Source: Candidatus Poribacteria bacterium (GTDB lineage Bacteria; Poribacteria; WGA-4E; PCPOR2b). From it: a DNA stretch of 64,000 nt. The stretch covers positions 2,729,136 through 2,793,135 of the forward strand of contig OZ220744.1 in the NCBI GenBank assembly GCA_965116925.1. Direction: 5' to 3'. The translations under genes were made by a program, and so were the position numbers. Under the pieces are notes generated by a model, which had not been told where the DNA came from, ran no database searches, and saw nothing but the letters and a program-made list of their open reading frames with translations. This document shows, piece by piece, positions 1,765-62,518 of the stretch (its first letter is position 1; every line of letters starts with the position of its first letter).

Positions 1765-2389
1765 GAGGTTTAACCTCCTTGTTCTGTGACTGTTCAGCAA
1801 TTTTTGTGCCAAACATCTTGCTGAGGGCGAGAACTGGAATTTGATTGATTAAACAGGTGAACTTCGGCTTTAGATTGGATAGGGGCTGCTATGCGCGAAA
1901 TACCTATGCAGTTCAGGCTGGGGTTGTGGACTTACATCCGATAGAAGGTGGGGTTAAAACCGTCTTGAGATAGGGCTGTATTTCGCTTACAGGCAGGGAG
2001 GAGATTGCCCAACATCGTGCACACCGGTGCTTACTTTTAGCCTTCAATGTGCAAGGAATCCTTTAGATAGTTGGCGGATGGAGTCTATGCAATTGGAGCG
2101 AGGATTTGCCGATTTGTTCGGGGTTTGGGGCGGTGGGTGGAGGATCAGTTGAGGCTTGGAGGTGTAATGCAGCTTGGTTGAACTGTTCAAATTTTGAACA
2201 CCACTGTTTTATGAATAGACACAGTGAAACCAACACGCAATCCACACCTTGGTTATCAAGAGTTGGGTTTCACGGTTTCATTCAACCCAACCTACAACGC
2301 TGTGTTGGTTCATTGGTTCGTGTGTAAGAAAGACTGTCGATTTTGGAAAATCGACCTACAGCAGTCTGTGGGGATCGGGTTTCCTAACT

Positions 2390-33392: not shown

Positions 33393-36300
33393 TTAATCCG
33401 CTGGTGCGGGTTGAGCAGCCAGACCGCCAACGCCCGGAGCGTCTTCCGTCTCGCTCTCTTGCCGTCCACGCTCATGGAACTCACCGCGGATATCAGCACT
33501 GAACGTCCGCCAAATTAGTAGCTGTTTTCGGACAAGGTTCAAGAAACGACGGTTGACGCGCTTCCATGAAGCAATCTCCCCGCTCTCACGGTGGACATCG
33601 AGGTGAATCTTATACAACTCTTCCTCTTCTCCGCCGACCGGTGAGGTGACAAGCCGAATGGATTGGCTGACTCCGAGATCGTAGGGGGCGAGCCACACCA
33701 TCATGCTGATGTTGTAGGCTTCTTCCTCTTCCTCTTTCCCTTCCACTACCACAGGCGTTCGACCGAAGGCGACCTGATCCGTGTAGAAATCGCTTGCGGA
33801 TTCGTCGGCGTGTGCTTCAAAGTAATCGCGCATAAAGATATTTAAGCCGAGCGATTCTTCTGCCAACACGGTGAAGGGGAGATCGAAGTGCCACTCGTCG
33901 CCTTCAGGCTCCGGCAGCTGCCATTTCCGTTCGATGTCAGGCACCGCCATGCGACTGGCTTTAATTGCAGGATACAGTGTACTTCCAATCACGACAATCA
34001 TTACAATAATGGTTGCTACCACTGTTGACATTGACGAGTAGTTGAGGGTCAATCCAGCAAGCAAGCCAAAGTTGACAAGGACGGTTGCGACTGCCTGGCC
34101 GAGCAGGTAACCGAGCACAGCACCGACAATCGCATACACACACGCTTCCGCGAGGAACAGGAAGGCGATATGCACGGGAGCGAGTCCGACAGAACTGTAG
34201 ATGCCGATTTCACGGACCCGTTCGTAGACCGCACCGAGCATCGTGTTCAGAACGATCAGCGACGCAATTAAAATTGGTATGAATAGGTTACCCATACCGG
34301 AGAAAGAGGTCATTCCGATGGAACTGTAGAGATAGGTGTCCCGATCTTTTCCAACAAAGAAGTCGAGTGCGATTCGGTTCATCAGCGGTGCCATGATCAG
34401 GTCCAGTTTATCTGCCGCACTGAAGATTGTTGGATCGCCGGGCTGTGCTTCCATGTTGACAGCGACGGAGCGTAACGTCCCGCCCTGATTCATGACTACA
34501 TCATACGGCAGGATAGCCACAGCATCGGGAGGTAGATGAATATATTTCTCCAACTCTCCTTCCATGGCTTGGTTCTGTCCTTGGGCGCCACCGCCTCGCG
34601 CTTCCTGCTGCTGCATCAGTTGGTAGTCAACAGGTGTCAGTTCTTCGCCATCATTATCCTGTAAGTCTTTGAAGCCGATACCGAGAACACCCGTAACGGT
34701 GAAGTCTGCGCCGTATACGGATACAGTCGCTTTGCCCATATCGGCTTCGGTGATGCCGAGCAGATCCGCCATACCTTTGGGGAGGACACAAGCATAGGGC
34801 CATTGTGTGGGCCACTCTGCTTCATCGTCGGGGTGATACCATCGACCATACTGGAGGTAACGGTCAATTCCTGTTACACCGGGTTCATCTTGACTCATCC
34901 CGACCAACATGGTAGCAGAGTAGGTCTTTGGCTGACCGGTGGTAGTATTGACAGGCGGTACAGGATCTTGCAGGTTGGGGGTGCGCTCTAGCTGCACAAA
35001 CGACTGATCGCCGGTGCCCGCGGACTGATACCATGCGCGTGGCGCGACGATGTTATGCACTCGGAGGACGGATTCTTCGCCCAGCTCAATCAACGATCCC
35101 TCCTGACGTAATTGGGCTATGATTGCTTCAACCTCTACGTCAGCCTGCTCTGCCGATTTACCTTGCTGCCCCAGTCGTTTCTTCAGCAGTAACCGTAGAT
35201 CTTTTTCAGGGATTTGTGTTTTCCGCAGATCATTTGTGAGTGAGTTGACAACAGGTTCTTCGAGCGGATTCCAATACTGATCTCGGATAAGCATCCCGGT
35301 GTAGCGCGGCGTTACGGAAGGTAGGTTGGTGCTGTTGGGATGCATAAAGGTACGCACCGATGTAAAGGAGATGACCGTAAAGGTGAGAATAACCAGTGTG
35401 CTACAGGTGAGGATGGTGCGGCCCTTCCGCTTACGCATATTGGAAATACCTAGACTGAAAGCGGCAGCGGAGGCAGACAAGCGTCCCACGTCTGCCTTGT
35501 ACACTTTTGATCCCTCCTGCTTAATTTTTTCCACCTGTTCTTCAAATTTCCGGACGATGATGCTGATCACAATTGCCGTCAACGCAAGGACGACGAACGC
35601 AATCAGGATGATAACCGGCGTCGTGGTAATCTGGAATGCGGGGTGCACCTGCGCCAAGAAGAAAAAGACAACGAGGAAGATCGCAGCTGTCCCCATAATC
35701 TGTTTTTGGACGGTTGGGAAAGCGAATATCAACCGTTCCATGAAGTAGGCGAACGGGATCAGGAGGGCGAGATAGAACATCACACCATTGACTACGTCAT
35801 TGCCGGTTTTCTTCACATCGGGGTAGGCGCGGGATTCGTATCCCCACGCGGCGCGGGCAAGTTTGAGTGCCTGCTGATAGTCTTTTTGGGTGAGGGCAGC
35901 CTCCGCCTGATTTAGATGTTCGTTGGCGAATTGGTGGAGCTGATCAAGCCGATCGCTGCTGATGCCGAACCGTTTATACAGACTCGCCCGGTTCTCATCG
36001 AGCCACCACATATCGCGGACGACAACGTATGGGGTTACGCGAATGCTACCGTTCTCGCGGACAACAAACCCTTCTCCGGTATAGAGTGTCGGGTTCTTCG
36101 TTCCGCTTTTACTCGCCTTGATCAATAGTAACCGTTTGCCGATTTGTCCATACGCCATGCCGACCTTGATACGACTGTTAGGCTCCGAATAAACGAGCGC
36201 GATAGGCTCAGTTGCCGAGATACCTTCCTGCTGCCACGGCTTCGATACGCCATACTTTTCTGGTGGGCTATCGCTTGCGGCATCAAAAACTTCCAGTTCA

Positions 36301-39300
36301 CGAAGCGTTCGTAGGTATCGCTGATCCACAAGATCGTAGATAGTGGTAGACACACAGGGGAAAACCACGATACGGCATCCACGACGGTGGGTGTTAATCG
36401 GTATCAGGTTCGGCAAGAGTTTCGCGCCGAAGTTACCGAGATCCGGTGCGTAGACAATATCACCGGAATCCGGGTGGAGGATATAAGCTTCCACCTCTTG
36501 CGTTCCTTTGAGGCGGATGGTGGCACGCCCCTCCATCGCAAGTCCTGCAACCTCAAAGTTTCCTTTATTGTCGCCCATTGCAATGAGATCGCCTCGCACC
36601 CCCATCATGGTTTTGTGCTGATTCCGCAAAGCGAGAATAGGATACTCCACCGGTTTGTTTGGTAGCGCGCTCTCACGGGCATCATACTCGACGACATCAC
36701 CAAACAGGTTGCAGTAGAAGTTCCCCACCCGTGCTGCGGTGGGCATCTTCGGATCGCGCATCGCTTGGATAAGAATAGCGGCAAGGGTTTTCGCCTGTTT
36801 ATGCAAGGCACCATCGTGGCTCAAATCCATTCGGTCAATTGTGTCGAGCGGGGTATCGGTCAACACGCGTGCATCGTCGATGGTGGCAAAAGCAATTCCG
36901 GTAAAGCCGGTCAGGGTTGCCACTTCGCTATCAAAGGCTATCTTACCAGGTATGTAGGTCTTCCAGATCTTACCGCCACTAGCAGAGATTGCGTTGACAA
37001 AGTTGGTCTCACCACCAAACCCGGCGATATCAATGAGTGCCTTAATATCATCGACTTCCTCTTGTGTAAATTCGGACGGGTCCTCGTGGCGCAGGGCAAG
37101 CATCGCATCCATTCGATTGAGCAGGCGCACCTTATTCTTCCGGTTCTTCCGCGCCTCCCGGATATCGTTTCGGATGAATCGTTCGACTTCCTTACGGATA
37201 TAGTCCATATCCTTGAGCATATCCTCGGAAGGTTCGCCCTGATTTTTCATCTGCTCAAACTGCATCTTCATCAATCGAGACACTCCGGATAGCCCGACCA
37301 ACGTTGCGTAATGCTCAGTAACTAAGCTTTCAAGGCTCTTGCCCTCGATGGCTTTTTTCGGATCGATGCCAGCTGCAACTGTCCATTGAGTATTCATCAC
37401 CGCTTGGCGGATCTGATCGTCGGTGAAGGTCCATAGTTTCTGGATACGTTCACCGAAATCGGCACCCTCTGCGTATTCGGCAAGTTTATTTCCGATGGAA
37501 GCGAACTCGCGGCGGAGGACAAATTCGGGCTGCTGGTCATAGAACCACCCTTTGTTGAATACGCCAAACTGGTCGTTCTGGCTGGAGAGGTCAATGGCGA
37601 TAAAGAGAGAGGTGTAGTAACGATTAAAGATGTCTTGCAGTGCAATCGCTTGTTCGATGGAACGTATCTTCCGTGTGTATTCTGACTCGCTGATACGTGC
37701 AATTTTCTCGACCCGTTTTTGTAGATTGCGAAATCGAGCGTTCCGCATCGTGAGCAGGTTATCACGGAGGAGAATCTTGGTCTCCTCGTCCGGATCGCGG
37801 TCAAGACGGTCAAGGATGTTCAGCAGGTTCTGGAGTTCGACAATATCGTTTTTGGCTCGCCGCTTCACCATCTCTAGTAGATGCTGTTCTTCAAGCTGAC
37901 CGAAGATCTGCTCTCGGACAGCCATCGCTCGGTCTGCTGCATCTTCAGGGAGATAGTGGCGGAGGACGAGTGCCTCTTCGGCGAGGTAGGGACGGTTCAG
38001 CGACGCATGGCGTTCAAGGAGGGATTCAATTCGATAGCGTTCAAGGCGAGCGTTCCGCATCGCGGTTTCGAGGATACTCTGTTTATCTCTGGTCAGGTCA
38101 TCAACCAAAATTTGGTCTAATTCTCGTGAGGTTGCTGTTCCCGTTGTCGGGTCCATCATCTCCAACTTCTGGTGGAGTTGAGTCTGAACAATCTCAAACT
38201 GCTTGAGGGTTGCCTCATTGAGGAAGAGTTCTAGCTCATCCGCAAAGCCTGCCGGGAGGTGATCCGGTTTAGAACTTAACTGGGTGATAGCGTTTTTGAT
38301 ACTATCCTCTGCATCGCTGCTTGCGGGAATATTGGCGAGCGTTCGTTCAAGGAGTTGCCGTTCTTCTTCGATGTAGGCTTCCAGAGATTTTTCAGCGCGG
38401 TTGACAACCCTACGAGCTGACTTGATTCGTTCCAAACCCTTAAAGTCAAGATGGCGGTCTAACAACTTCTCTTGGGCATACTGGAGGGTGAATTTCCGTG
38501 GATCTTCAAATTCCCAGTCCTGCAAATTGTCCGAGAGTCGCTGAACATCTACCTCCAGATACGACGGTAGGTCACTCGGTACTGGTAGATAATAACGTCC
38601 CCCCTCCCGTTCCTTCGGTACGAGATAGCTGCTGTCTGGCGTTTGTACATATTTCCCTTCAATCCGTTCTGCCCTTAAATCCGCTTCCAATTTATCTATT
38701 GCCCAAACGTCCAACCGAGCCATCGGTAGGGCAATCTGTTCAATCAATTCACGTTGGGTGTCACGGCATTCAGCTAATGCTTGTGTGCGCAGTTTTAGGG
38801 TACGGTTAAGCATTGAACGCAGGAATTGAGTGGTCTGCAGCGCGTCTTTCTTGAACTTCGCGAGGTTGACCTCTAGTCGTGATTTTTCCTCTTCGGTGAA
38901 TCCTTGCTTCTCCCGTTTCTTGGTTGTTTCGAGTTTCTTCTTCTCTTTCTCTTTTGCGTCACGCTGGGCGTTACGCAACGAGTCAATGTTGCCTTTGGTT
39001 GTCTGTAGATCGGAGAGGGTTGTTGCTAGGGAGGCGACATCTGCTTTGAGTTCGTGGACATCGTGGAAGAAGTTAGGGGGTAAATCTACCAGCACATTTC
39101 GGTCGATCGATAGCAGTAGCTTACGTCCCAGTTCCTCAAACTCAAAGAGGTCGGTACTTAAACCGCGACGCAGCCCGCGCATTGTCGGTGTGCCGGGAGA
39201 ATCCGCTTCTCGTCCGACGATATCTTGACCAATCCCCTCCATAAATGCGCGCATACCCCCCAGTCCTTGGAAGTGGGCATCTGTTGCGACAAACAGAAGG

Positions 39301-40814
39301 GAACGCCCCGGTCGAAATTCCTCTTGGCTGAAGATACGAGCAAGCTCCAACAGAGTGGCAATGCCGCCGGTGGGATCGGCACCGGGTGCCATTGCGGGAA
39401 CGACAGACATTGAGTCGTAATAGCCGGTGATAACAACCAATTCGTCCTTTAGGGTTGGGTCGCCACCTTCAAGGAAACCACGAATGTTCTGCCCAATACG
39501 CTGTTCCCAAGTAATGGTACTAGTGAGACGTGCGTAAATTTTCTGAGGAGACGATTCCGATTGTGCTTCCCCTTCGCCAAGCATAGCCAAGAGTTCGTCG
39601 GCGTCCTCTTTAGCAATCCAGAAGCGGGGGATGTTGGCAGGGACCGTCAGGAATTTGTTCTCAGCCTCACCGCGGATAGTTGTCTCCGGCTCGATGAAGA
39701 GGACAGCTTTCGCGCCAAGCATGGCGGCGTTAATCCATTTGGTACTAGAGTTGAAGTCAACCAGTACAACGCTGCCTTGGGGGATAAAGATGCTGGATTC
39801 ATAGGCGGCAACAAACTCGCCTTCTTCGTCAATTTGCCCATTGTTGTTGTTATCAATACCATCAGTTGCATCGCCGGGGATTTCGTCTACGAAGGCGTCA
39901 CCATCGTTGTCGATGCCGTCGGTATCCCATTGCAAGATCTCAGTTAGTGGGGGAATCTCACCGTATTCGTCGATCTGTCCGTCTTCATTGTTGTCAATAC
40001 CATCTTGCGTCTTTTGGAGATGGCCGTTAAGCACATCGTCAGTGATGCTGCCGACACCGATACGGAAACGGTGGGCGAGGTCTTCCAAAGTATCGCCAGG
40101 TTCAACTTTGTGCCAGAAACCGCCGATATCTTTGCCGTTGAACGAGGAGAGTTCCCCACTTCCCCCATAAAAGAGGGGCGCGGTCAGTCCACCGGTGGGA
40201 ATAAAGAGCGAGTTGCCTTCGACCAGCACTAACTCGCCCGGTTCGTCGATTTCACCATCATCATCGTTATCGCTGCCATCGGTTGCTTGGTCACGGAGGT
40301 ATTGGTTATGCGGGTCAGCCAAGATAGCTTGTGGGTCAACTTGATAGGATTTAGCAATTCCGTCAAAGGTTTCGCCTTGAACGACTACATGCGAGACACC
40401 GTTGGGGAGGAAGGAGGTGCGAACAAGGTTGGGCCAGATTGACCAGATTCGGTAAGTCTTCAGAAGCGTTTGATCTTCGGAAAGAATTTCTACCTTTCCA
40501 TCACCGTGATCTATTGGAACAGAAACGGGAAACTCACGGCTCTCAACGTTTTGTAAGCCGATCTCGACAAATTGGTCAAAGATGTACTTGCTGCCTGAAG
40601 CGGCTTCATCGTAACCGGTGACGCGGGTGGGCAGATTGGAGAGTCGAGCGATGTCTTTTCGCATTCGGCCGATATCGACTTTGTCACTGATTTTGACTGC
40701 AACCTCCGAAAGCCCGACAGACAGCTGTTCGTCAACAGCGAAACCGCCGTGTGGAGATAGTAGCGCGAGAATGCAGAGCCATAGACTGATGTAATAATAT
40801 CTCTTGATGATCAT
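33393..40814 (-). CDS. Giant (about 2470 aa) secreted/membrane multidomain protein: signal peptide, M28-family Zn peptidase with Ca-binding Asp-rich repeats and LysM-like motifs, about 1000-aa coiled-coil, then 3 TM and a FtsX/MacB-type permease module with a large extracytoplasmic domain and a C-terminal cytoplasmic tail
   Basis: M28: 'ITGYYDSMSVVPAMAPGADPTGGIATLLELARIF...LLFVATDAHFQGLGG'. Repeats 'DGIDNNEDGQIDEYGE', 'DTDGIDNDGDAFVDEIPGDATDGIDNNNNGQIDEEGE'. FtsX TM1 'FSLGISNMRKRKGRTILTCSTLVILTFTVIS'. FtsX core 'GNLFIPILIASLIVLNTMLGAVYERVREIGIYSSVGLAPVHIAFLFLAEACVYAIVGAVLGYLLG'. Start set at Met40814 (GGAGG RBS, signal peptide IIKRYYYISLWLCILALLSPHGGFA) rather than the track's 40898. Confidence 0.8.
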   Translation of the reverse strand: MIIKRYYYISLWLCILALLSPHGGFAVDEQLSVGLSEVAVKISDKVDIGRMRKDIARLSNLPTRVTGYDEAASGSKYIFDQFVEIGLQNVESREFPVSVPIDHGDGKVEILSEDQTLLKTYRIWSIWPNLVRTSFLPNGVSHVVVQGETFDGIAKSYQVDPQAILADPHNQYLRDQATDGSDNDDDGEIDEPGELVLVEGNSLFIPTGGLTAPLFYGGSGELSSFNGKDIGGFWHKVEPGDTLEDLAHRFRIGVGSITDDVLNGHLQKTQDGIDNNEDGQIDEYGEIPPLTEILQWDTDGIDNDGDAFVDEIPGDATDGIDNNNNGQIDEEGEFVAAYESSIFIPQGSVVLVDFNSSTKWINAAMLGAKAVLFIEPETTIRGEAENKFLTVPANIPRFWIAKEDADELLAMLGEGEAQSESSPQKIYARLTSTITWEQRIGQNIRGFLEGGDPTLKDELVVITGYYDSMSVVPAMAPGADPTGGIATLLELARIFSQEEFRPGRSLLFVATDAHFQGLGGMRAFMEGIGQDIVGREADSPGTPTMRGLRRGLSTDLFEFEELGRKLLLSIDRNVLVDLPPNFFHDVHELKADVASLATTLSDLQTTKGNIDSLRNAQRDAKEKEKKKLETTKKREKQGFTEEEKSRLEVNLAKFKKDALQTTQFLRSMLNRTLKLRTQALAECRDTQRELIEQIALPMARLDVWAIDKLEADLRAERIEGKYVQTPDSSYLVPKEREGGRYYLPVPSDLPSYLEVDVQRLSDNLQDWEFEDPRKFTLQYAQEKLLDRHLDFKGLERIKSARRVVNRAEKSLEAYIEEERQLLERTLANIPASSDAEDSIKNAITQLSSKPDHLPAGFADELELFLNEATLKQFEIVQTQLHQKLEMMDPTTGTATSRELDQILVDDLTRDKQSILETAMRNARLERYRIESLLERHASLNRPYLAEEALVLRHYLPEDAADRAMAVREQIFGQLEEQHLLEMVKRRAKNDIVELQNLLNILDRLDRDPDEETKILLRDNLLTMRNARFRNLQKRVEKIARISESEYTRKIRSIEQAIALQDIFNRYYTSLFIAIDLSSQNDQFGVFNKGWFYDQQPEFVLRREFASIGNKLAEYAEGADFGERIQKLWTFTDDQIRQAVMNTQWTVAAGIDPKKAIEGKSLESLVTEHYATLVGLSGVSRLMKMQFEQMKNQGEPSEDMLKDMDYIRKEVERFIRNDIREARKNRKNKVRLLNRMDAMLALRHEDPSEFTQEEVDDIKALIDIAGFGGETNFVNAISASGGKIWKTYIPGKIAFDSEVATLTGFTGIAFATIDDARVLTDTPLDTIDRMDLSHDGALHKQAKTLAAILIQAMRDPKMPTAARVGNFYCNLFGDVVEYDARESALPNKPVEYPILALRNQHKTMMGVRGDLIAMGDNKGNFEVAGLAMEGRATIRLKGTQEVEAYILHPDSGDIVYAPDLGNFGAKLLPNLIPINTHRRGCRIVVFPCVSTTIYDLVDQRYLRTLRELEVFDAASDSPPEKYGVSKPWQQEGISATEPIALVYSEPNSRIKVGMAYGQIGKRLLLIKASKSGTKNPTLYTGEGFVVRENGSIRVTPYVVVRDMWWLDENRASLYKRFGISSDRLDQLHQFANEHLNQAEAALTQKDYQQALKLARAAWGYESRAYPDVKKTGNDVVNGVMFYLALLIPFAYFMERLIFAFPTVQKQIMGTAAIFLVVFFFLAQVHPAFQITTTPVIILIAFVVLALTAIVISIIVRKFEEQVEKIKQEGSKVYKADVGRLSASAAAFSLGISNMRKRKGRTILTCSTLVILTFTVISFTSVRTFMHPNSTNLPSVTPRYTGMLIRDQYWNPLEEPVVNSLTNDLRKTQIPEKDLRLLLKKRLGQQGKSAEQADVEVEAIIAQLRQEGSLIELGEESVLRVHNIVAPRAWYQSAGTGDQSFVQLERTPNLQDPVPPVNTTTGQPKTYSATMLVGMSQDEPGVTGIDRYLQYGRWYHPDDEAEWPTQWPYACVLPKGMADLLGITEADMGKATVSVYGADFTVTGVLGIGFKDLQDNDGEELTPVDYQLMQQQEARGGGAQGQNQAMEGELEKYIHLPPDAVAILPYDVVMNQGGTLRSVAVNMEAQPGDPTIFSAADKLDLIMAPLMNRIALDFFVGKDRDTYLYSSIGMTSFSGMGNLFIPILIASLIVLNTMLGAVYERVREIGIYSSVGLAPVHIAFLFLAEACVYAIVGAVLGYLLGQAVATVLVNFGLLAGLTLNYSSMSTVVATIIVMIVVIGSTLYPAIKASRMAVPDIERKWQLPEPEGDEWHFDLPFTVLAEESLGLNIFMRDYFEAHADESASDFYTDQVAFGRTPVVVEGKEEEEEAYNISMMVWLAPYDLGVSQSIRLVTSPVGGEEEELYKIHLDVHRESGEIASWKRVNRRFLNLVRKQLLIWRTFSADIRGEFHERGRQESETEDAPGVGGLAAQPAPAD

Positions 40815-41043
40815 GATAATTCCTCCGATTTTTTTAATAGGCTGACCGGCGCATAGTATGCTATTGTGTTTAGATCTGTCAGATTCTATCATAGTCACAA
40901 AGTCTTGTCAAGATGCAAAACGGATCTAATTCACAAAAACATAAAACGTGATTGGTTCATTTATCATGTTTTAGATTTCATTCATGGAATGCCGATAAAA
41001 TCGGGGATGCAGGGCGTAACTTCTATCAATTTCGTTTTATACC

Positions 41044-41530: not shown

Positions 41531-42418
41531 ATGAACCAGAGATCGTCCCAAAAACATCAGATTGCAGAACAGGTGTCCTCCAAACCCGCTCTAGAACCTG
41601 CCGAGGGTGCGCGACAGTTGTTGCGTGAACTAAATGTTCAGGACATCCCGATTCAACCGCGAAATATTGCAGAACAGTTGCAAATCGTCGTCTGGGAACG
41701 GGAGATGGAAAGCCAGTACGATGGCTGCTTAATGCGGGTTGGCGATACGTGGGGCATTCTGCTCAACAATCTGATTCAATCAGAGTCCCGAAAGAACTTT
41801 ACAATCGCTCACGAACTGGGGCATTACTACTTGGATGGGGGACAAACTGAGAGGCAAAATTTCGCTACAGATGCAAAGAACAGAGCGGCGGAATTTGCCC
41901 CTCAGCACCGTTGTCAGCGCGAAGATTTGCGTGGATTTGATTCGCACCAATTGGAAGAGCAACGTGCCAATCAGTTCGCAGTTGAGCTGCTGATGCCCTC
42001 TCCCATTTTTCGAGCGGACGCTACCGATCTGCCTAAAATCGGGTTGACGGCGATTGATACCCTCACTGCCAAATATTCTACCTCTTTGACCAGCACGGCT
42101 ATTCGCTACACACGCTTGAGTCCGCATGTTTGTGCGATTGTGCTGTCTGAGCGGGGGCAGATTAAATACTTTGCTTATTCAGATGGCTTTCGTCAGAATA
42201 GTGATTGCTATCTCGCGAAAAATAAGCCCCTCCATCCCGACTCGGTCGCAGCCCTGCTTGACAAAGGTAAATCGAAAGAGGTGAAAGAACACCAGCGGAA
42301 AGTTCCGTTGTCCCATTGGTGTTCGACGCAATCGGATCAACCCCTCGTCGAGCAATCCCGCCGATTGCCCCGCATGAATCAGGTGCTCTCGTTTCTTTGG
42401 TTGCCGGACGGGGCGTGA
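41531..42418 (+). CDS. ImmA/IrrE-family (DUF955) zinc metallopeptidase
   Basis: 'FTIAHELGHYYLD' HEXXH motif plus a downstream Glu. Paired with the upstream XRE HTH, as in ImmR/ImmA and CapH/CapP modules. Confidence 0.8.
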   Translation: MNQRSSQKHQIAEQVSSKPALEPAEGARQLLRELNVQDIPIQPRNIAEQLQIVVWEREMESQYDGCLMRVGDTWGILLNNLIQSESRKNFTIAHELGHYYLDGGQTERQNFATDAKNRAAEFAPQHRCQREDLRGFDSHQLEEQRANQFAVELLMPSPIFRADATDLPKIGLTAIDTLTAKYSTSLTSTAIRYTRLSPHVCAIVLSERGQIKYFAYSDGFRQNSDCYLAKNKPLHPDSVAALLDKGKSKEVKEHQRKVPLSHWCSTQSDQPLVEQSRRLPRMNQVLSFLWLPDGA

Positions 42419-42577: not shown

Positions 42578-43909
42578 CTATTGTTCCGCTTCCCCGCCAT
42601 CAGGCGTGTCGCGGGAAGGAGGCGTCCCGCTTGCAGGACGGTCGGGAGGGTGCGGCTCAAATTGCCGAGCCGCGTCAGGATCAGACTCCCGCAGACGACG
42701 AAGCCCCTCCTCTGTGCCGTATTGGTCTATCAACCGTTGCGCCTTATCAGCAGGATTAGTTGATAGTCCTTCAATCAAATCCGATCCAATCCCCTGTGGT
42801 GTCAACTGTTTTTCGAGATCTGCTACACTTTGAGGGGATATAGGCTTGACTATATCGGGAAGATCTGATGGAGAGACAGGAACATCAGAGCGAACCGGGG
42901 CACCATTGGCATTTTCATTGATGCTTCCCTCAGAAAAAGGGTCTGTTGCTGAATAGTCCCCACCGAATTCTGTTTCGCTACTTCCTGACGGGAGGGTGCC
43001 CTCTAATTTTCGCATCCACCCCGGTAGTGCGTCTTCAGCGATATCAGACAGCAACCGCACCTTCACCGGCGGTTTATCAGACTGCCCCGGTTTGGCAAAA
43101 GAGTTTAATATACGTCCTCTTTCCTTCATTGCCAGATTGTTGTCGACATTCTCTTTTGCTCTTGCCGATAACGACACATCAATTTCGCCCTTTGCTATCT
43201 TTGCCTCAATCTCCGCCATCGAGATCTTTAATTGTTTACTGAGCCAGACCTTTTTTATGAACTCTTGACGTTCATAGGGATCTTTTATCGCATAGTATTC
43301 ATCGGGTATCGGTTCGCCTGCTACCTCAACACGCGCTGGGTGCTGGTCCTGCTCAAATGCTTCTAAAATCGGCGGGTCCAACTCTGACGGTAATATCGCG
43401 TCCCCTTCCTCGTACTGCCTGTCGTGCGGGACAATCACGTTATGCAGTTGACCGTCAGGAGTTACGATTCGCTGGACAACCTGACCTTTATAGGGCGAGT
43501 TCTCAGCGAGCCTTTTTAGATGTTTCTTGACATAAGGGTTTTTTTTACCCGTTATCTCCCACGCTTGCAGTTCTATATCCTCACGATCAAAAGGCACAGG
43601 TGTATAGATATACGTCCCAGCTACCATATAGACATACTCATCGCCCCGTTTCCCCTTGTAATAGGGGTTCGTGGTATCCGCCGTTGTGCTTGGGTCTGGA
43701 TTTCCGCCCCCATGGGTATGCCCTTCGGTTAGATGGTCATGCCCATCTGTTTCTGTATGTTTAACAGAACGATTAAACGCCTGAGTGGACGATATAAAAT
43801 GCTCGAATGCAACATGCTTCTGGTATTCTCTATAACCGATGTAGCAGACCAACAGTAACGCAATCAGACCCACCACAACGAGATAAGGAGTAAAACGGTA
43901 ATTCAACAT
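42578..43909 (-). CDS. N-terminally membrane-anchored 443-aa protein with a His/Gly-rich segment (unknown function)
   Basis: TM 'YLVVVGLIALLLVCYIGY', then an 'HTETDGHDHLTEGHTHGGGN' metal-binding-like stretch and an acidic low-complexity C-terminus. Confidence 0.5.
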   Translation of the reverse strand: MLNYRFTPYLVVVGLIALLLVCYIGYREYQKHVAFEHFISSTQAFNRSVKHTETDGHDHLTEGHTHGGGNPDPSTTADTTNPYYKGKRGDEYVYMVAGTYIYTPVPFDREDIELQAWEITGKKNPYVKKHLKRLAENSPYKGQVVQRIVTPDGQLHNVIVPHDRQYEEGDAILPSELDPPILEAFEQDQHPARVEVAGEPIPDEYYAIKDPYERQEFIKKVWLSKQLKISMAEIEAKIAKGEIDVSLSARAKENVDNNLAMKERGRILNSFAKPGQSDKPPVKVRLLSDIAEDALPGWMRKLEGTLPSGSSETEFGGDYSATDPFSEGSINENANGAPVRSDVPVSPSDLPDIVKPISPQSVADLEKQLTPQGIGSDLIEGLSTNPADKAQRLIDQYGTEEGLRRLRESDPDAARQFEPHPPDRPASGTPPSRDTPDGGEAEQ

Positions 43910-43987
43910 AGTAAAAACCTCCTCAATAGTTATGAGTCAGGACGAGGTTAACCGCCTGCCCCAACCCACACGCTCATACGGATTCAC

Positions 43988-44362
43988 CTAACCTCCGCAG
44001 CTTGAATTGGAACACGTTACCGAATCAATGCGCCAATAATACCGCCCCCATTTTATACTATTCCAATGGAAGTGTGTTAACTCACCAGTTATTAAGTGAT
44101 AGGTGTTTGTTACATTCCAGCACTCCTCTCTGACGCGGGTTCGATGGATTGTGGTCGAACTTCCACAATACGAGCAAGTGCCACTGATCGTATCCGATGA
44201 CATATCTTTCCACTTGTATTTGTGACCAGACTCACTATACTCTAACCACCCTTGGTCAGCCTCAGCTCTCTCAGGTTGAAAACCAGCATATATCCCCAAA
44301 CCAACTACCAATACCCCAACAATCAACAACGAAACTTTCAACTGTCCTTTTGCTGCAAACAT
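43988..44362 (-). CDS. Small single-TM protein with a Cys-rich extracytoplasmic domain
   Basis: Start MFAAKG (GGGAGA RBS). TM 'LLIVGVLVVGLGIYAGF'. Six Cys in the C-terminal half. Confidence 0.5.
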   Translation of the reverse strand: MFAAKGQLKVSLLIVGVLVVGLGIYAGFQPERAEADQGWLEYSESGHKYKWKDMSSDTISGTCSYCGSSTTIHRTRVREECWNVTNTYHLITGELTHFHWNSIKWGRYYWRIDSVTCSNSSCGG

Positions 44363-44404
44363 GGTAAATCTCCCTATTACCATAGTTCCGGCCAAAAACA
44401 AAAA

Positions 44405-44445
44405 GGGGCTGCGCCCTCAAATCGCGCAGCCCCTTTTTGTTTTAA
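44405..44445 (-). terminator. Intrinsic terminator hairpin within the 5' leader of the small-protein operon (leader copy A)
   Basis: Minus-strand RNA 'GGGGCUGCGCgauuugaggGCGCAGCCCC' followed by UUUUUGUUUUU. Sits 35 nt upstream of the RBS of the 43988-44362 gene. Confidence 0.6.
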
Positions 44446-44504
44446 GTTGAAACTAATAGTTTAATAAGGGTATACTATAAACAATTGTTAGGTGTTCATC
44501 CTAA

Positions 44505-44614
44505 CAATGGCGAAGCGACTCGAGGTCGTGTCTCGTTTTGCTTCAGGGGGCTTCGAGCTGGACCTCGGAGCTCCCACAACTACCCATTCTATACCATCTT
44601 GAAAAATCTGTCAA
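44505..44614 (-). promoter_or_regulatory. Minus-strand promoter (TTGACA-17-TAGAAT) plus conserved structured leader motif 'R', copy A
   Basis: -35 at 44614-44609 and -10 at 44591-44586 (minus strand). The transcribed leader contains 'GUGGGAGCUCC...CCCUGAAGCAA...CGAG..CCUCGAGUCGC', homologous to 47397-47470 and 46088-46150. Confidence 0.5.
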
Positions 44615-44650
44615 CACTTTTTTTCTTAAAATCAACAATTTGCTGAGATT

Positions 44651-45916
44651 ATGGCAAAACCTTTTCGCGTTGCCGCTATCGTAACCACCTTTTTTCCGAA
44701 CAGTCATGCCGGGGTGATAGTTCCCAAATTCCTGCGTGGCTTTCCCACCGACGATGGACTGATTGCGCCGCGTACCCAGCTCGCGTCACTCTTCATTGAC
44801 CAGATCCATCAAAATGATGTTGGGCGGCAGATCGCTCACGAATACGATATCCCCATCTACGAGAGCATTCGTGCCGCGCTCACGCTCGGCGGCGATAGTC
44901 TGGCTGTGGATGCGGTGCTGCTCATCGGTGAGCACGGGGACTACCCACGCTCTGTACTGGGTCAGGAGATGCTGCCGCGGCGATATTTCTTTGAGCAGAT
45001 CTGCGGCGTTATTGCGGAGTCGGATCGCCCCATTCCTATCTACAACGACAAGCATCTGTCCTACCGTTGGGATGATGCTCACTGGATGTACACAACCGCC
45101 ACGCAGCTGGACATACCGCTCTGGGCGGGATCGGCGTTGCCGGTGGGTTGGCGGTGCCCGAACTTTGAGCATCCGTTGGGCGCACCAATCGAGGAAGCGT
45201 TGTCCATCGGGTTTCACATGATTGAACGGTACGGTTTTCATGCGCTGGAAAGCCTACAGTGTCAGGTGGAACGGCGACAGGGAGGCGAAACGGGTGTCTG
45301 TGCGGTGCAATGTTTGTCCGGTGATGCGGTTTGGCGCGCTGCCGATGAGGGACGATGGTCGTTTGAACTTGCTAACCATGCCCTCGGTACGATTGAAGAC
45401 GGGCCCAAATCCCTCGATCCGTCGCAGGTCGAAGATCCACACGTCTTCTTGATTGAGTATAGCGATGGGTTGAAAGGTGCGGCGTTGATGCTTGGCGATA
45501 ACGGCTATGTGCGGAAGTTCGCCTACGCAGCCAAGCGTGGAGAAGTCATTGATGCAATGGAATACCACACCGATTCGGGGGCGACCCATGCGGTTTTCAG
45601 CTATATGGGGCTGAATATTGAGGACTTCTTCCTGAGCGGTGTCCCGCCCAGTCCGGTTGAGCGAACCTATCTGACGACTGGCATCTTGGAGGCGGTGATG
45701 CGCTCCCACGGCAGCGGTGGCTCACAGATCGAAACCCCGCACTTGGCTATAGGTTATACGGCTACTGAATCCCAACTTCGACGACCCACTAGCACTCGCC
45801 CAACCGGTGCGTCCCTTTCGGCGTGGGAGATGCCGGAGCCGGGTGCCACTCCCGCTGCGGATTTGATTCCTATCGGGCGCGATGGGACAATTCGGGGGCG
45901 TCGGCGTTTCAACTAG
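44651..45916 (+). CDS. Hypothetical 421-aa cytoplasmic protein (no family recognised)
   Basis: Long ORF with consistent codon bias. The minus-strand ORFs inside it (44786-45241, 45254-45709) are judged spurious. Confidence 0.5.
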   Translation: MAKPFRVAAIVTTFFPNSHAGVIVPKFLRGFPTDDGLIAPRTQLASLFIDQIHQNDVGRQIAHEYDIPIYESIRAALTLGGDSLAVDAVLLIGEHGDYPRSVLGQEMLPRRYFFEQICGVIAESDRPIPIYNDKHLSYRWDDAHWMYTTATQLDIPLWAGSALPVGWRCPNFEHPLGAPIEEALSIGFHMIERYGFHALESLQCQVERRQGGETGVCAVQCLSGDAVWRAADEGRWSFELANHALGTIEDGPKSLDPSQVEDPHVFLIEYSDGLKGAALMLGDNGYVRKFAYAAKRGEVIDAMEYHTDSGATHAVFSYMGLNIEDFFLSGVPPSPVERTYLTTGILEAVMRSHGSGGSQIETPHLAIGYTATESQLRRPTSTRPTGASLSAWEMPEPGATPAADLIPIGRDGTIRGRRRFN

Positions 45917-46087
45917 GTTCTGTTGACATTTTATATTGATGCACCTACAACAGTATTTTGGGCAGGCACAAGCCCCCGATGAATCGGGATTAAGAAACCT
46001 GCCCCTACATTACATCGAATGACCCGAGCCAGCCCCGTCCACACTTTCTGATTGTATATTCGAGCGTTTCTGCTATTTATACACTCG

Positions 46088-46150
46088 AAGCGATTCGAGG
46101 ACCCGCTCGGATCGTTTCACGGGGTCGGGAGGTGTCAGCTCCCAACCCCA
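46088..46150 (-). promoter_or_regulatory. Orphan third copy of leader motif 'R' (no downstream minus-strand gene)
   Basis: 'UGGGAGCUGACACCUCCCGACCCCGUGAAACGAUCCGAGCGGGUCCUCGAAUCGCUUCGAG' (minus strand) aligns with copies A and B. Confidence 0.4.
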
Positions 46151-46159
46151 CCATTTTTT

Positions 46160-46867
46160 TCAAGGTTCAGCCCACCCGTTTTCACGTAACATCTCCAACA
46201 ACAGGGTATAGCCCTGATCCTTCAATTCAGGGTTTTGGGCATACAACACTTGCACCGCTGGCGGCGCAGCATTGCCCATCTGCGATTTGACTTCTGCTAA
46301 AAAATCACGCTGATCCTCTGCAGATAACGTATTGAGATGATCGACAATCATCGGGATCGCTTGATTCATCGTCTGCAGCACTCGCTTGCGGACCACCGCT
46401 GCATCTTCGAGCGCTGCTTCCGTTTTGGCTGCCATTTCCTCTAGCTCCGCAAGGGATTGCTCAAAAGCAGCCGTATCGGCTGCAGTAGACGCCGAAACCG
46501 ATGCTTTGTCGGGTTCAACTTCGCTCACAATTGGATCTAACAAGCCATCCGTATCCGATACGAGTGGATCCACCGCTTCATCAATTGGACGATGCGAAAC
46601 GCTATCCGTCGATTCGACCGGTGGCGTCGTGCGCTCGTTCAGGATTGCCCGCCGTTCCGATGGATCCGGTAGCAGATAGACCCGCTCCGACTCGACCGAC
46701 TTCGACGGGCGCACATAAGCGAAATATACCACCCACGAAATGATCAGCGTCAAAACTACGACAATCCCTAACCCGATGAACAGTGGCGACCGAAGCTCTT
46801 TCAGATACTCCCGCCACGATCGCCAGCCCTTGCCTGTCCGATCTCGCCAGTCGTAAAAAATCGGCAT
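46160..46867 (-). CDS. Single-TM membrane-anchored 235-aa protein with an acidic/Ala-rich ectodomain (unknown)
   Basis: TM 'LFIGLGIVVVLTLIISWVVYFAY'. Follows the 46886-47260 gene with a 19-bp gap. Confidence 0.5.
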   Translation of the reverse strand: MPIFYDWRDRTGKGWRSWREYLKELRSPLFIGLGIVVVLTLIISWVVYFAYVRPSKSVESERVYLLPDPSERRAILNERTTPPVESTDSVSHRPIDEAVDPLVSDTDGLLDPIVSEVEPDKASVSASTAADTAAFEQSLAELEEMAAKTEAALEDAAVVRKRVLQTMNQAIPMIVDHLNTLSAEDQRDFLAEVKSQMGNAAPPAVQVLYAQNPELKDQGYTLLLEMLRENGWAEP

Positions 46868-46885
46868 TTGAAACCTCCTTTAAGA

Positions 46886-47260
46886 CTATCCTGCACCCTG
46901 ACGCTGCATGCACTCCCAATACTCCTGATCAGCGACAATGGCTTGAAGCATCGCCGCAGCCAAAGCCGCCTCCGCAGCCAAAAGAAAACCGAACGCAACC
47001 GCAATCGCAATCGGGTTTGCAGACGCGATCGCGGCAACTAAAGCGCCCTCCGCAGCAATGACCGCGACCAGTGCGGCTGCCTGCCATGCGAGCGCTACAT
47101 TCAACGCATTGCGCTCCGATTGACAGACCTGTGCGATCGCTTCGACTGCCAAAAACGCCATAACACATAACAGAATAACGCTGATTAACCGTAACAGGTT
47201 CCGATTCAACCTAAACGTAGGGACAGTGATTTGTGGTACGGGTAAAGCAAACGCAAACAT
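46886..47260 (-). CDS. Small Ala-rich multi-TM membrane protein
   Basis: Start at MFAFALPV (GGGAGA RBS) because the track's longer ORF runs through the leader hairpin. Helices 'LLRLISVILLCVMAFLAVEAIA' and 'ALVAVIAAEGALVAAIA'. Confidence 0.5.
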   Translation of the reverse strand: MFAFALPVPQITVPTFRLNRNLLRLISVILLCVMAFLAVEAIAQVCQSERNALNVALAWQAAALVAVIAAEGALVAAIASANPIAIAVAFGFLLAAEAALAAAMLQAIVADQEYWECMQRQGAG

Positions 47261-47303
47261 AACAAAATCTCCCAACCGCCACCGGAAGCCACAAACAAAA
47301 AAA

Positions 47304-47470
47304 GGCTGCGTCGTCACGAATCGCGCAGCCCTAAGAAGTTTGTTGCCAAGCCAGTTGGCGTGATAGGTTGTGGGTTGACCGTCGGCATATTTTCCGACGA
47401 CCGAAATTGGGCGATTCGAGGATCTGCTCGGGTTGCTTCAGGGAGGTGCGGAGGTATCAGCTCCAAGTCT
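47304..47470 (-). promoter_or_regulatory. Leader copy B: motif 'R' plus an intrinsic terminator hairpin upstream of the 46886-47260 operon
   Basis: Minus-strand 'GGGCUGCGcgauucgugacgaCGCAGCC' followed by UUUUUUUGUUUG at 47330-47290. Upstream motif 'GUGGGAGACUUGGAGCUGAUACCUCCGCACCUCCCUGAAGCAACCCGAGCAGAUCCUCGAAUCGCCC'. Confidence 0.55.
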
Positions 47471-47589
47471 CCCACTTTATCTAAGGCGCAATTGACATGC
47501 CAAAAGTGACAATAATCGCACAAAGCCAGTCACCATCGAGCTTTCAACGCGAAATGTTAAAAAAGTCGTTGAAGTGATTAACCCAATTA

Positions 47590-47639
47590 TTAGCAACAGT
47601 TGCTAAGCAATAGTTGCTAACGTTAGCAACAGTTGCCAA
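47590..47639. promoter_or_regulatory. Array of three tandem palindromes TTAGCAAC-A-GTTGCTAA (candidate operator)
   Basis: Perfect 17-bp palindrome at 47590-47606, with two imperfect copies centred at 47612 and 47631. Confidence 0.45.
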
Positions 47640-47933
47640 CCTTCTCGCAGACACCAACAGACTTAAAAAGCTGCGCGAAGTACACGGAGCATTTTATTAT
47701 GACTTATCCCGACAAAAAGATAGGGAGTTATTAAAGTATTTTAACCAACTCAAACCAGAAACAGTCAAAGGCAAGCGTTTCGTGAACACAAAAAAGCGGT
47801 ATCATGCCAGGGAATGAAACGACGCTTTAACATCTGATTCACCTCCTTGAGGGAGGTTTTCAGCAGGAGCGAATTCAGGAGTAGTGGGAGCGTAGGTGGG
47901 TTCCACACTCCCACTGACCCTACTTTGCGAAGA

Positions 47934-61928: not shown

Positions 61929-62518
61929 GGGGGTGAAAAGGTTTCGACGAGAGTAGATGATGTAAAGGTTGCATGCCGAGGTCTCCGCAGGCCTCGTTAA
62001 ACAGGCGGAAACAATTTAATTGCCGATGAAGAATTGGCTCTAGCTGCTTAATAAAAGCGGCTCGTCCGGCTAATTTGCGGTCCCGTCGAGTTAGCCCGAC
62101 GTCAACAAACGGGCTGTGCGCCTTACTTGTTCTCAAGGGGCATGGCGCGAGATTTAACTTGAGATAGTCCGCAGCGAATCCGGCATAAGGGAGTCCTATG
62201 GACGAAACACCAAAGCTTATGCTAAGCATGTAGTAGCCTTTATTGAAATGCTCTCGGACGCGGGTTCGATCAGTCTGGTCGACTTGGAGGGCAACCTCCT
62301 CGATTAAACTTGGCTTACATCGGTGAAACCTAAGAGATGGCGACATCTTATGGCAACACCGAGGGATTGTATGGTCCTGTAGAGACTGTAATGATAGGAG
62401 ATAATGTCAACGACAAATCTAGATCTCCTATAACACGCTAGGCTCCACCATTTTGGGTGGATGAAGATATAGTCCACGCCTCTGGGAAACCGGGGGGTCA
62501 CGTGTCCCGCCACCTCCA
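61929..62518 (+). ncRNA. ssrA: tmRNA (ssrA) interrupted by a group I intron in the T-loop. Exon 1 is 61929-62270 and exon 2 is 62505-62518. The tag reading frame spans 62022-62054
   Basis: 5' 'GGGGGUGAAAAGGUUUCGACG...GGUUGCAUGCCGAGG..CCUCG' (D-loop analog and PK1) closely parallels E. coli ssrA. Tag ORF GCC GAU GAA GAA UUG GCU CUA GCU GCU UAA UAA gives ...ADEELALAA. 3' 'GGACGCGGGUUCGAU | intron | UCCCGCCACCUCCA' restores a canonical T-arm and a 7-bp acceptor stem with a G3-U70 wobble. A T-run follows. Confidence 0.85.
62271..62504 (+). other. Group I intron (234 nt) inserted in the tmRNA T-loop
   Basis: 5' exon ends in U paired to an internal guide 'GUCGA' (P1: UCGAU/GUCGA with a U-G wobble at the splice site). 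The intron ends in G. Core-like elements 'GUAGAGACUGUAAUG' and 'GAAGAUAUAGUCC' resemble the P7/P9.0 region (AAGAUAUAGUC) of Tetrahymena-type group I introns. Confidence 0.7.

Follow-up and report, generated by a model that had tools for sequence, protein, structure and literature searches.

A multicopy structured leader RNA preceding exported-protein operons in Candidatus Poribacteria

Poribacteria are uncultivated, abundant symbionts of sponges, and their interaction with the host is thought to rely on secreted and surface proteins. We know of nothing on how these proteins are regulated. In this study, a 64,000-nt stretch of a Candidatus Poribacteria genome (assembly GCA_965116925.1, contig OZ220744.1, positions 2,729,136 to 2,793,135; hereafter the window) was analyzed for an element that occurs in it three times (copies A, B, and C), and that an initial annotation had described as a conserved structured RNA leader with a built-in terminator, a candidate riboswitch or attenuator. 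The element is a previously undescribed leader RNA of about 215-235 nt, which is multicopy and, among the collections searched, found only in Poribacteria. We lean, with some reserve, toward reading it as a cis-acting attenuator with translational masking that regulates the operon that follows. Positions are those of the window, features lie on the minus strand unless the plus strand is named, and L-numbers (L018, L024, etc.) are labels of comparison loci in other genomes.

Layout of the leaders in the window

Copy A (44579-44363) carries the element in full. The promoter proposed for it in the initial annotation is present at 44614-44586, with a -35 box TTGACA (44614-44609), a 17-nt spacer, and a -10 box TAGAAT (44591-44586), giving 11 of 12 consensus matches; the A-rich tract AAAAAAAGTG precedes it. 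Judged from the sequence, transcription would start near 44579, 3-4 nt before the first hairpin. The motif of about 70 nt (44575-44511), the GC-rich hairpin with its U-run, and the ribosome-binding site (RBS) were likewise found where they had been annotated. The first hairpin, HP1 (44546-44575), has a 12-pair stem with one C-A mismatch (GGGAGCUCCGAG and CUCGAAGCCCCC, loop GUCCAG). HP2 (44511-44545) reads UGAAGC / AAAA / CGAG / loop ACACGAC / CUCG / AGUC / GCUUCG, a G in its internal loop replacing the usual A of AAUC. A third hairpin, P3 (44484-44508), is formed by AUUGUUAGG and CCUAACAAU around AUGAACA, and is followed by a conserved single-stranded block, UAGUAUACCCUU (44466-44477), with nearly invariant columns.

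With its CCCUU, this block provides the anti-Shine-Dalgarno (anti-SD) strand that closes a long hairpin (comprising P4 and the terminator, 44372-44470), for which some 45-50 pairs are predicted (-53 kcal/mol). It spans from CCCUU (44470-44466) to the AGGG of the RBS (44375-44372) and encloses an A-tract, a GC stem, and a U-tract. The terminator-like tip (44394-44433) consists of the 10-pair GC stem GGGGCUGCGC (44433-44424) and GCGCAGCCCC (44414-44405), the loop GAUUUGAGG (44423-44415), and, directly after the stem, the U-tract UUUUUGUUUUU (44404-44394). The RBS AGGGAGA lies at 44375-44369 and the start codon ATG at 44362. Folding of the whole leader gave a z-score of -7.75.

The same layout of motif, terminator, RBS, and small gene recurs at copy B (47476-47258), as had been claimed. 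The 5' domain of this copy (47377-47476) belongs to a subfamily shared with copy C and L024:1600-1822. It comprises HP1 (47473-47441; GGGAG..GGAG/CUGAUAC/CUCC..CUCCC), an HP2 (47440-47411) in which the inner stem and the AAUC loop are kept and the outer stem is degenerate, and P3 (47402-47377; GGUCGUCGG/CCGACGGUC). The long hairpin (47268-47375; -47 kcal/mol) again contains the terminator: a 7-pair stem of GGCUGCG (47330-47324) and CGCAGCC (47310-47304) with loop CGAUUCGUGACGA, and a U-run UUUUUUUG from 47303. It is followed by the RBS GGGAGA (47273-47268) and an ATG at 47260.

The two leaders have different kinds of promoter. That of copy A is of the sigma-70 type, whereas the one before copy B, TGGCATGTCAATTGC (47488-47502), is of the sigma-54 type, with the -24 GG and -12 GC elements, and HP1 begins about 12-14 nt downstream of it. 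A scan of the window for TGGCAY-N5-TTGC returned two perfect matches only, one of which is this element. The other (1797-1811, minus strand, TGGCACAAAAATTGC) is possibly a second sigma-54 promoter. The promoter region of leader B is conserved before related cassettes (L079:560-710, L083:9100-9240). A palindrome, GTTGCTAACGTTAGCAAC (47630-47613), lies about 110 nt upstream of the sigma-54 element within an array of half-sites (47560-47650, minus strand; GTTGCTAACGTTAGCAAC, TTGCTTAGCAAC, TGTTGCTAATAA) that resembles an enhancer-binding-protein site; the conservation in L079 and L083 takes in this region as well.

Copy C (46153-46053) is the 5' motif alone. It begins 7 nt past the stop codon (46162-46160) of a 235-aa open reading frame (ORF) and consists of HP1 (46149-46121), HP2 (46120-46086), and a P3-like hairpin to 46053; the long hairpin, U-run, RBS, and gene are absent. 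All three copies were recovered by a 95-nt covariance model of the 5' domain (R1) that was seeded by eight copies from other genomes only. With filters off, R1 found exactly three sites in the window: A (105.8 bits, E = 3e-23), C (30.0 bits, E = 2e-5), and B (22.1 bits, E = 2e-3). A second model, R2, of the terminator half (the long hairpin) matched copy A (96.2 bits) and copy B (26.4 bits) and gave no match to copy C. Per alignment column, identity among the three copies is about 61%; the initial annotation had given about 60% for the leader of copy B.

Family, distribution, and fold

The exact HP2 pattern was scanned over 185,579 species genomes, with one genome per bacterial or archaeal species. 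It occurred at 63 loci, 49 of them in 19 metagenome-assembled genomes (MAGs) of Candidatus Poribacteria, with a maximum of seven in one chromosome. All 49 Poribacteria loci also have HP1, P3, and the downstream parts. The 14 loci outside Poribacteria were rejected as chance matches: the surroundings of the pattern are bare, their number is what chance predicts, and R1 rejects them. R1 found 54 true copies in the Poribacteria loci, four of which had not been caught by the HP2 pattern, and none in the other 14 loci. Six further canonical leaders were identified in loci retrieved via a neighboring protein and not by the RNA pattern. The family has at least 60 copies, with up to eight per genome. 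They are often arranged in tandem at 2-3 kb spacing (e.g., L018 at 1080, 3045, and 5419). The window itself is 84-91% identical to, and syntenic with, L021, L024, and L060.

No match to the linker plus terminator pattern was found in JGI metagenome contigs, and the 15 HP2-pattern matches there were all chance matches that the model rejected. The viral contigs of IMG/VR gave no terminator-pattern match and one chance match (12 bits), so that phages do not carry the element there. The Rfam scan suggested in the initial annotation was also run, with Rfam 15, and identified no family at these loci. A tmRNA was the sole match in the whole window, the region 43900-47600 searched at E<=10 gave weak, sub-gathering matches to unrelated sRNA and miRNA families centered on the terminator, and eighteen leader-bearing Poribacteria loci (144 kb) had no matches at the gathering score. 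A literature search returned nothing usable on riboswitches or RNA motifs of Poribacteria. A Poribacteria-1 RNA motif, said to come from the work of Weinberg et al. in 2017, is reportedly a candidate structured RNA obtained from Poribacteria genomes by comparative genomics. The main text of that paper does not mention Poribacteria-1. If this motif is among the Rfam 15 models, it does not match the loci; identity with the leader looks unlikely, although no direct comparison with the motif was made.

The order of parts in the full-leader alignment is fixed: HP1, HP2, P3, a UAGUAUA(A)CCCUU block, and the long hairpin. HP1 is a 12-pair stem across the family, frequently with a single C-A mismatch, and shows double-sided changes at all 11 pairs (helices 1 and 2). 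P3 is a 9-10-pair hairpin of variable sequence; all nine of its pairs covary (helix 5), and it is missing from one subfamily (L023/L050/L061/L063). HP2, which abuts HP1 and reads UGAAGC / AAMA / CGAG / 6-7-nt loop / CUCG / AAUC / GCUUCG, is the invariant core of the family, with no variation in helices 3 and 4. The 5' domain is three serial hairpins without junction or pseudoknot, and the hairpin loops vary freely. The expected pairs were formed in 94% of alignment cells, compared to 28-39% with the partners slid, and 20 of 30 pairs change on both sides, a number reached by none of 500 shuffles. Covariation is confined to HP1 and P3, where the main pairs have 6-17 compensated sequences each, counts that are slightly inflated by two reverse-strand rows in the alignment. 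RNAalifold on a plain MAFFT alignment gave HP2 only, with the HP1 loops misaligned, and hand-seeded covariance models were used instead. A K-turn or loop-E reading of the HP1 and HP2 internal loops was rejected: CGAG/CUCG covary as Watson-Crick pairs (UCAAG/CUUGA in L010 and L044).

The 3' half folds alike in all subfamilies, as one hairpin with a predicted energy between about -44 and -55 kcal/mol that reaches from CCCUU to the AAGG or AGGG of the RBS, and R2 recovers it in all leaders. In forward-strand rows, 88% of cells were paired and double changes were present at 22 of 37 pairs (shuffle maximum 19). An independent MAFFT alignment of 59 sequences gave 82% paired cells versus 45-61% with partners slid; the number of covarying pairs in that alignment was not significant, being reached by 46 of 500 shuffles. 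The lower stem covaries as UA/CG, GC/GU/AU, and CG/UG/UA, for instance at pair 17-114 (UA 25, CG 14) and pair 20-111 (CG 36, UG 12, UA 9). The tip of the hairpin has the order A-tract, GGGGCUGCG, loop, CGCAGCCCC, U-tract; the terminator stem columns (helix 2) are 93% paired, with core pairs invariant in the 59 sequences. Covariation in HP1, P3, and the terminator-bearing hairpin supports the claim of a conserved structured RNA over that of a chance repeat. In copies A and B the GC stem is directly followed by the U-tract, as in intrinsic terminators. The terminator hairpin of the initial annotation is thus a real motif; in the modeled fold, it is the apex of a far longer helix that also masks the SD sequence.

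Position relative to genes is also conserved. The orientation is constant, the U-run starts 107-123 nt past the core, and the start codon follows about 150-165 nt past it, spacing that is fixed across the family. With this bias and the covariation described above, the element is not the dispersed repeat that the initial annotation had named as a refuting outcome. A promoter AAAAAGTGTTGACA-17-TAnnAT was detected in about 40 of 55 members (9-12 of 12 matches); its -10 box ends 7 nt before the motif, so that HP1 would start 3-4 nt into the transcript. In a few copies an extra hairpin separates promoter and HP1, some have no promoter within 75 nt, and the ortholog of copy C in L024 directly follows a stop codon. 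Since the leader is found behind a sigma-70 promoter, a sigma-54 promoter, or a stop codon, it appears to work however transcription arrives, which fits control after initiation. Two other candidate features were discarded, namely an internal promoter at TAGTAT, which has neither a -35 box nor a TG extension, and a leader peptide, for which there is no conserved start codon or frame.

These findings bear on two alternatives to cis-acting attenuation. One is an element that acts at the DNA level, such as an attC-like recombination site, a miniature inverted-repeat transposable element (MITE), or an operator array read via the TCGAATCGC / GCGATTCGA inverted repeats. As in integron attC arrays (the Vibrio VCRs), small and often exported orphan ORFs are separated by a conserved hairpin repeat, here of about 100-230 bp and in tandem, and the cassettes vary between relatives; P3 contains GTTAGAC...ATCTAAC, resembling attC core sites, and the HP2 block recurs, inverted in the DNA, in the terminator loop. 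However, the compensatory changes maintain hairpins and hence point to a single-stranded fold, and together with the fixed strand they indicate RNA. The repeat stands 5' of its genes, with promoter, terminator, and RBS, and its boundaries match promoter and RBS. The GTTRRRY/RYYYAAC-like words lie reversed inside P3, in the wrong order for attC, no integrase is present in the neighborhoods listed, and both terminal inverted repeats and target duplications are lacking. We regard a DNA-level element as highly improbable.

The other alternative is a set of stand-alone genes for trans-acting small RNAs (sRNAs) of about 185-190 nt, which might act via the single-stranded, anti-SD-like UAGUAUAACCCUUU, the downstream gene being a mere neighbor. 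Near-consensus promoter and strong-looking terminator do bound an RNA of that size, the terminated transcript would have the AU-rich, single P4 5' strand beside a hairpin with a U-tail that is typical of sRNAs, and multicopy sibling sRNAs are common. Yet conservation continues past the U-tract, and the sequence there covaries with that before the terminator (P4), which matters only in a read-through RNA. In addition, the start codon lies at a fixed distance, with neither space nor signal for a second promoter, and the copies that directly follow a stop codon have no promoter of their own. An sRNA gene appears quite unlikely on these grounds, although trans and cis roles are not exclusive.

Genes behind the leaders and exchange of cassettes

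ORF A (with RBS, 43988-44375; ATG at 44362, stop at 43988) encodes a protein of 124 aa with a signal peptide (MFAAKGQLKVSLLIVGVLVVGLGIYAG..AEA) and five Cys residues. The next gene (43909-42578) encodes a 443-aa orphan, whose family comprises more than 236 clusters, all unnamed or hypothetical, with Candidatus Poribacteria as the sole named organism. Operon B (46160-47260) has two ORFs, with orthologs in the same order in L024: ORF B (47260-46886), encoding a hydrophobic, Ala-rich membrane protein of 124 aa, and the 235-aa ORF (46867-46160), whose product has an N-terminal transmembrane segment. No Pfam match was obtained for ORF A, ORF B, or the 235-aa ORF. The claim that proteins A and B are not detectably homologous is consistent with this and with their poor mutual alignment.

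The products adjacent to the leaders share export rather than sequence. Taking the start codon after the RBS at the hairpin foot, an N-terminal hydrophobic segment was present in all 41 distinct adjacent products; among 173 control ORFs of these loci, the share was 42% (Fisher p = 8e-14). Many of the products are Cys-rich proteins of 80-150 aa in which an MFATKxRL...AEA-type signal peptide recurs ahead of mature sequences that are unrelated. Others, likewise unrelated, are secreted or membrane proteins, among them a Tat-type GMC oxidoreductase. The latter is the only one of 28 downstream products with a Pfam enzyme domain, the rest being orphan exported proteins. Leader-bearing operons contain 2-7 genes and almost no Pfam domains. 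In a few cases the first gene is only found 350-530 nt away, one of these encoding a small soluble protein. The RNA is therefore retained while the proteins behind it are unrelated, as the initial annotation had proposed.

At least 6-8 operons in a genome carry the leader, often grouped in tandem islands, and nearly all of their products are exported and without a known domain. The leader can thus serve as a sequence handle for finding a co-regulated secretome directly from MAGs. It is also a concrete RNA that is testable without cultivation and a well-supported candidate among the structured RNAs of unknown effector. The leader probably switches a set of secreted proteins on and off.

The third copy had been described as an orphan motif without a gene. 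It is indeed geneless; comparison with relatives indicates a truncated relic of an intercistronic leader. In L024 the order is leader, ORF B-like gene, 235-aa-like gene, leader, ORF3, a 414-aa gene (homolog of the 443-aa gene), and an IrrE-like gene, and the copy C ortholog (L024:1600-1822) is complete with terminator, RBS, and gene. Homology between the window and L024 ends at 46087, just 3' of HP2 in copy C. Beyond this point the window has a divergent 421-aa gene and then leader A with ORF A, an order that is also present in L021 and L088. Because copy C lacks the R2 half and its L024 ortholog is intact, we consider it, from these alignments, to be a dead copy left by rearrangement. The 421-aa ORF (44651-45916, plus strand) has no Pfam match and is transcribed away from leader A, only 37 nt separating its ATG and the -35 box. 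L021, L060, L087, and L088 share this arrangement, and the segment replaces the 3' half of copy C. Two further loci (L012:6566-6647 and L052:1328-1439), in which HP1 and HP2 are followed by GUAUAACUCC with no long hairpin, U-run, or nearby gene, also look like relics.

The leaders themselves appear to be mobile between genes. The L024 ortholog of ORF B has an A-type leader with a sigma-70 promoter, while copy B in the window is C-type with a sigma-54 promoter, and in L087 a 445-aa gene is found with neither a leader nor a small ORF. The swap of leader types between orthologs and the absence in L087 suggest that leaders and cassettes are exchanged with joints in the conserved blocks. Homology breakpoints were observed just 3' of HP2 (46087) and at the RBS (47273), and shuffled leader or cassette segments at L024:204-493, L024:477-1677, and L087:5808-6001. 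The leaders seemingly act as recombination joints that swap cassettes and promoters, which bears on how symbionts diversify their surface repertoire.

Such exchange could be taken as a sign of a constitutive module, in which the 5' domain is a stabilizer like that of the ompA 5' untranslated region and the long duplex an RNase III site or insulator whose cleavage frees the RBS, conservation being due also to cassette shuffling by homologous recombination. The position of HP1, 3-4 nt after the probable start, is like that of 5' stabilizers, RNase III could plausibly act on a near-perfect duplex of 45-50 pairs, intercistronic copies exist, and leaders are exchanged between orthologous genes with breakpoints at HP2 and the RBS. 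However, an A-tract, a GC stem, and 6-8 U residues, the signature of an efficient terminator, are present in all subfamilies and are hard to square with simple high expression, and neither a stabilizer nor an RNase III site would need HP2 and the terminator loop to be as invariant as they are. We think a constitutive module improbable.

Proposed mode of action and neighboring features

The reading that we favor, attenuation in cis with translational masking, would operate as follows. By default, RNA polymerase would halt at the U-tract. In any read-through RNA, the ribosome site would be masked by the base of the hairpin, so that the operon stays off. The 5' domain would be the regulatory input, and a factor acting there would turn the operon on. 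The leaders would then form a new family of cis-regulatory RNAs that functionally resembles terminator attenuators and the expression platforms of riboswitches.

A candidate for the switch itself is found in the terminator loop, which is conserved as GCGAUUYGRG; such conservation is unexpected for a terminator loop. The 3' strand of HP2, (C)CUCGAAUCGC, is complementary to it over 10-11 pairs (-14 to -20 kcal/mol) and is the best upstream duplex partner of the loop in every short-loop leader. In copy A, the loop plus the last stem pair reads GCGAUUUGAGGG and the HP2 3' strand CCUCGAGUCGC. When the nascent transcript ends at the loop, the HP2-loop pairing is the minimum-energy fold; after the 3' terminator arm is added, the fold with HP2 and terminator prevails. 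Only 2 nt separate the captured loop from the 3' arm, from which helix geometry suggests that both helices cannot coexist, and in the short-loop class the pairing would exclude the terminator stem. In long-loop leaders, the terminator loop also matches the 5' strand of HP1. Pairing between the HP1 3' strand and the terminator 5' arm was rejected as an antiterminator, since the two do not co-vary.

Several observations weigh against the favored reading or its switch. The terminator loop has 9-23 nt versus the usual 3-8 nt, and a standard terminator scan matches only partially; termination at the U-tract, read-through, and condition dependence are all read from sequence features. As HP2 never varies, covariation does not prove its fold. 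The search pattern also imposed part of this invariance, with only 10 canonical-type copies being independent of the pattern: HP2 is unchanged in six of them (L018:1080, L029:66, the three copies of L085, and L089:1736), three have one substitution, and that of L088 has a degenerate inner stem. For the complementarity between HP2 and the loop, shuffle p-values are about 0.004-0.08 (canonical copies) and 0.33 (copy B), with no compensatory change; L024:1600 has a weakened version (CUCAAAUCGC), the subfamily lacking P3 has none, and L079 retains the loop sequence while having no HP2. Finally, at L042:5380-5535 the long terminator/SD hairpin (82 bits with R2) and an exported-protein gene (MMFGTKRRL...) are present with no HP1-HP2-P3; as this locus (L042:5420) keeps its 3' hairpin and gene, the 5' domain is not indispensable. 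The conserved complementarity suggests a switch, the statistics being suggestive only, and in view of these modest values and the exceptions we treat it as a hypothesis.

The part of the initial annotation that describes a cis-acting structured leader with a terminator holds, while binding of a metabolite finds no support in serial hairpins and orphan exported-protein targets. In a metabolite riboswitch, HP1-HP2-P3 would be the aptamer, for example for a host-derived or envelope-related compound, and the ligand would decide between termination and read-through. Some features are as expected of a riboswitch: a conserved structure close to the promoter, in which one internal loop (AAMA/AAUC) is invariant, a terminator and SD-masking helix downstream, many copies in one genome as for c-di-GMP or cobalamin riboswitches, and a candidate pairing between sensor and terminator loop that may be mutually exclusive with the terminator. 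The sensor, however, is made of three independent hairpins in series, with freely varying loops and no multi-stem junction or pseudoknot. Moreover, one subfamily does without P3 and L042:5420 without the whole 5' domain, the target genes are united by export and share no metabolic or transport theme, and no Rfam riboswitch matches. A metabolite riboswitch seems unlikely to us. For the attenuator that we favor, the serial hairpins, the two similar CGAG-loop-CUCGAA hairpins, and the export theme make a protein or an RNA the likelier effector, ahead of a small molecule. When the window was searched for a trans partner able to pair with the HP2 5' strand, the element's own antisense strand was the sole match.

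The leader can be compared with several known systems. Like the trp, pyr, and T-box attenuators and the platforms of OFF riboswitches, it is a promoter-proximal structured leader with an intrinsic terminator just before the RBS. It shares with terminator attenuators the retention of the RNA while genes differ, a strand that could compete with the terminator, and sequestration of the SD sequence as a second layer. Unlike the trp, pyr, and T-box leaders, it has no Rfam match, leader peptide, tRNA-binding elements, or known protein-binding repeats, and it differs from known attenuators in that the candidate competing pairing would engage the terminator loop and not the 5' arm, and in that the terminator is nested in an SD-masking hairpin of 45-50 bp. 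The adjacent short hairpins HP1 and HP2 (CGAG...CUCGAA) before a terminator, in many copies per genome, recall substrates of ANTAR proteins; however, the 6-7-nt loops are variable and lack the A1/G4 signature (HP1 loops include UUACCG, UAGCAG, and CUGUCA), and HP2 lies about 100 nt from the terminator with no overlap with its 5' arm. The put elements of phage HK022 and the EAR elements have a similar layout, with two unspaced stem-loops in about 70 nt after a strong promoter and before a terminator. The leader differs in being also intercistronic and behind sigma-54 promoters and in having no known sequence similarity to them, and a constitutive antiterminator would render its conserved terminator pointless.

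In a bolder version of the attenuator proposal, the leaders would be regulatory RNAs of a new class, through which one signal, a ligand or a dedicated RNA-binding factor, controls a lineage-specific secretome regulon, with dozens of operons for orphan exported proteins in sponge-symbiotic Poribacteria, the invariant HP2 3' strand capturing the loop of the terminator and not its stem, and thereby blocking termination and opening the SD-masking rod. We consider this doubtful, if conceivable.

Some neighboring genes are related to regulation or mobility. A gene for an IrrE/ImmA-like metallopeptidase (41531-42418, plus strand; Peptidase_M78, E = 3.5e-15) adjoins the cassette; in relatives (L024:3791-5151, L087:8919-10165) such a gene is paired with an XRE-type helix-turn-helix (HTH) gene, a typical stress- or prophage-type switch pair. 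Transposase genes are present beside cassettes in relatives (DDE_3 in L087, DDE_Tnp_1 in L084). At L082:11567-13967 and L083:12817-15217, distant cassettes lacking HP1 and HP2 are followed by a gene for an extracytoplasmic function (ECF) sigma factor (Sigma70_r2/r4_2) and by orphan genes of 235 and 331 aa; this may be another way of regulating cassettes of this kind. The window also contains a one-piece tmRNA gene (61937-62272, plus strand; RF00023, 136.7 bits) and a giant ORF of 2501 aa (33393-40898, minus strand). Syntenic genes of the latter in L087 and L088 (2469-2471 aa) have Peptidase_M28 and FtsX matches, and the L087 copy has an additional faint LysM match.

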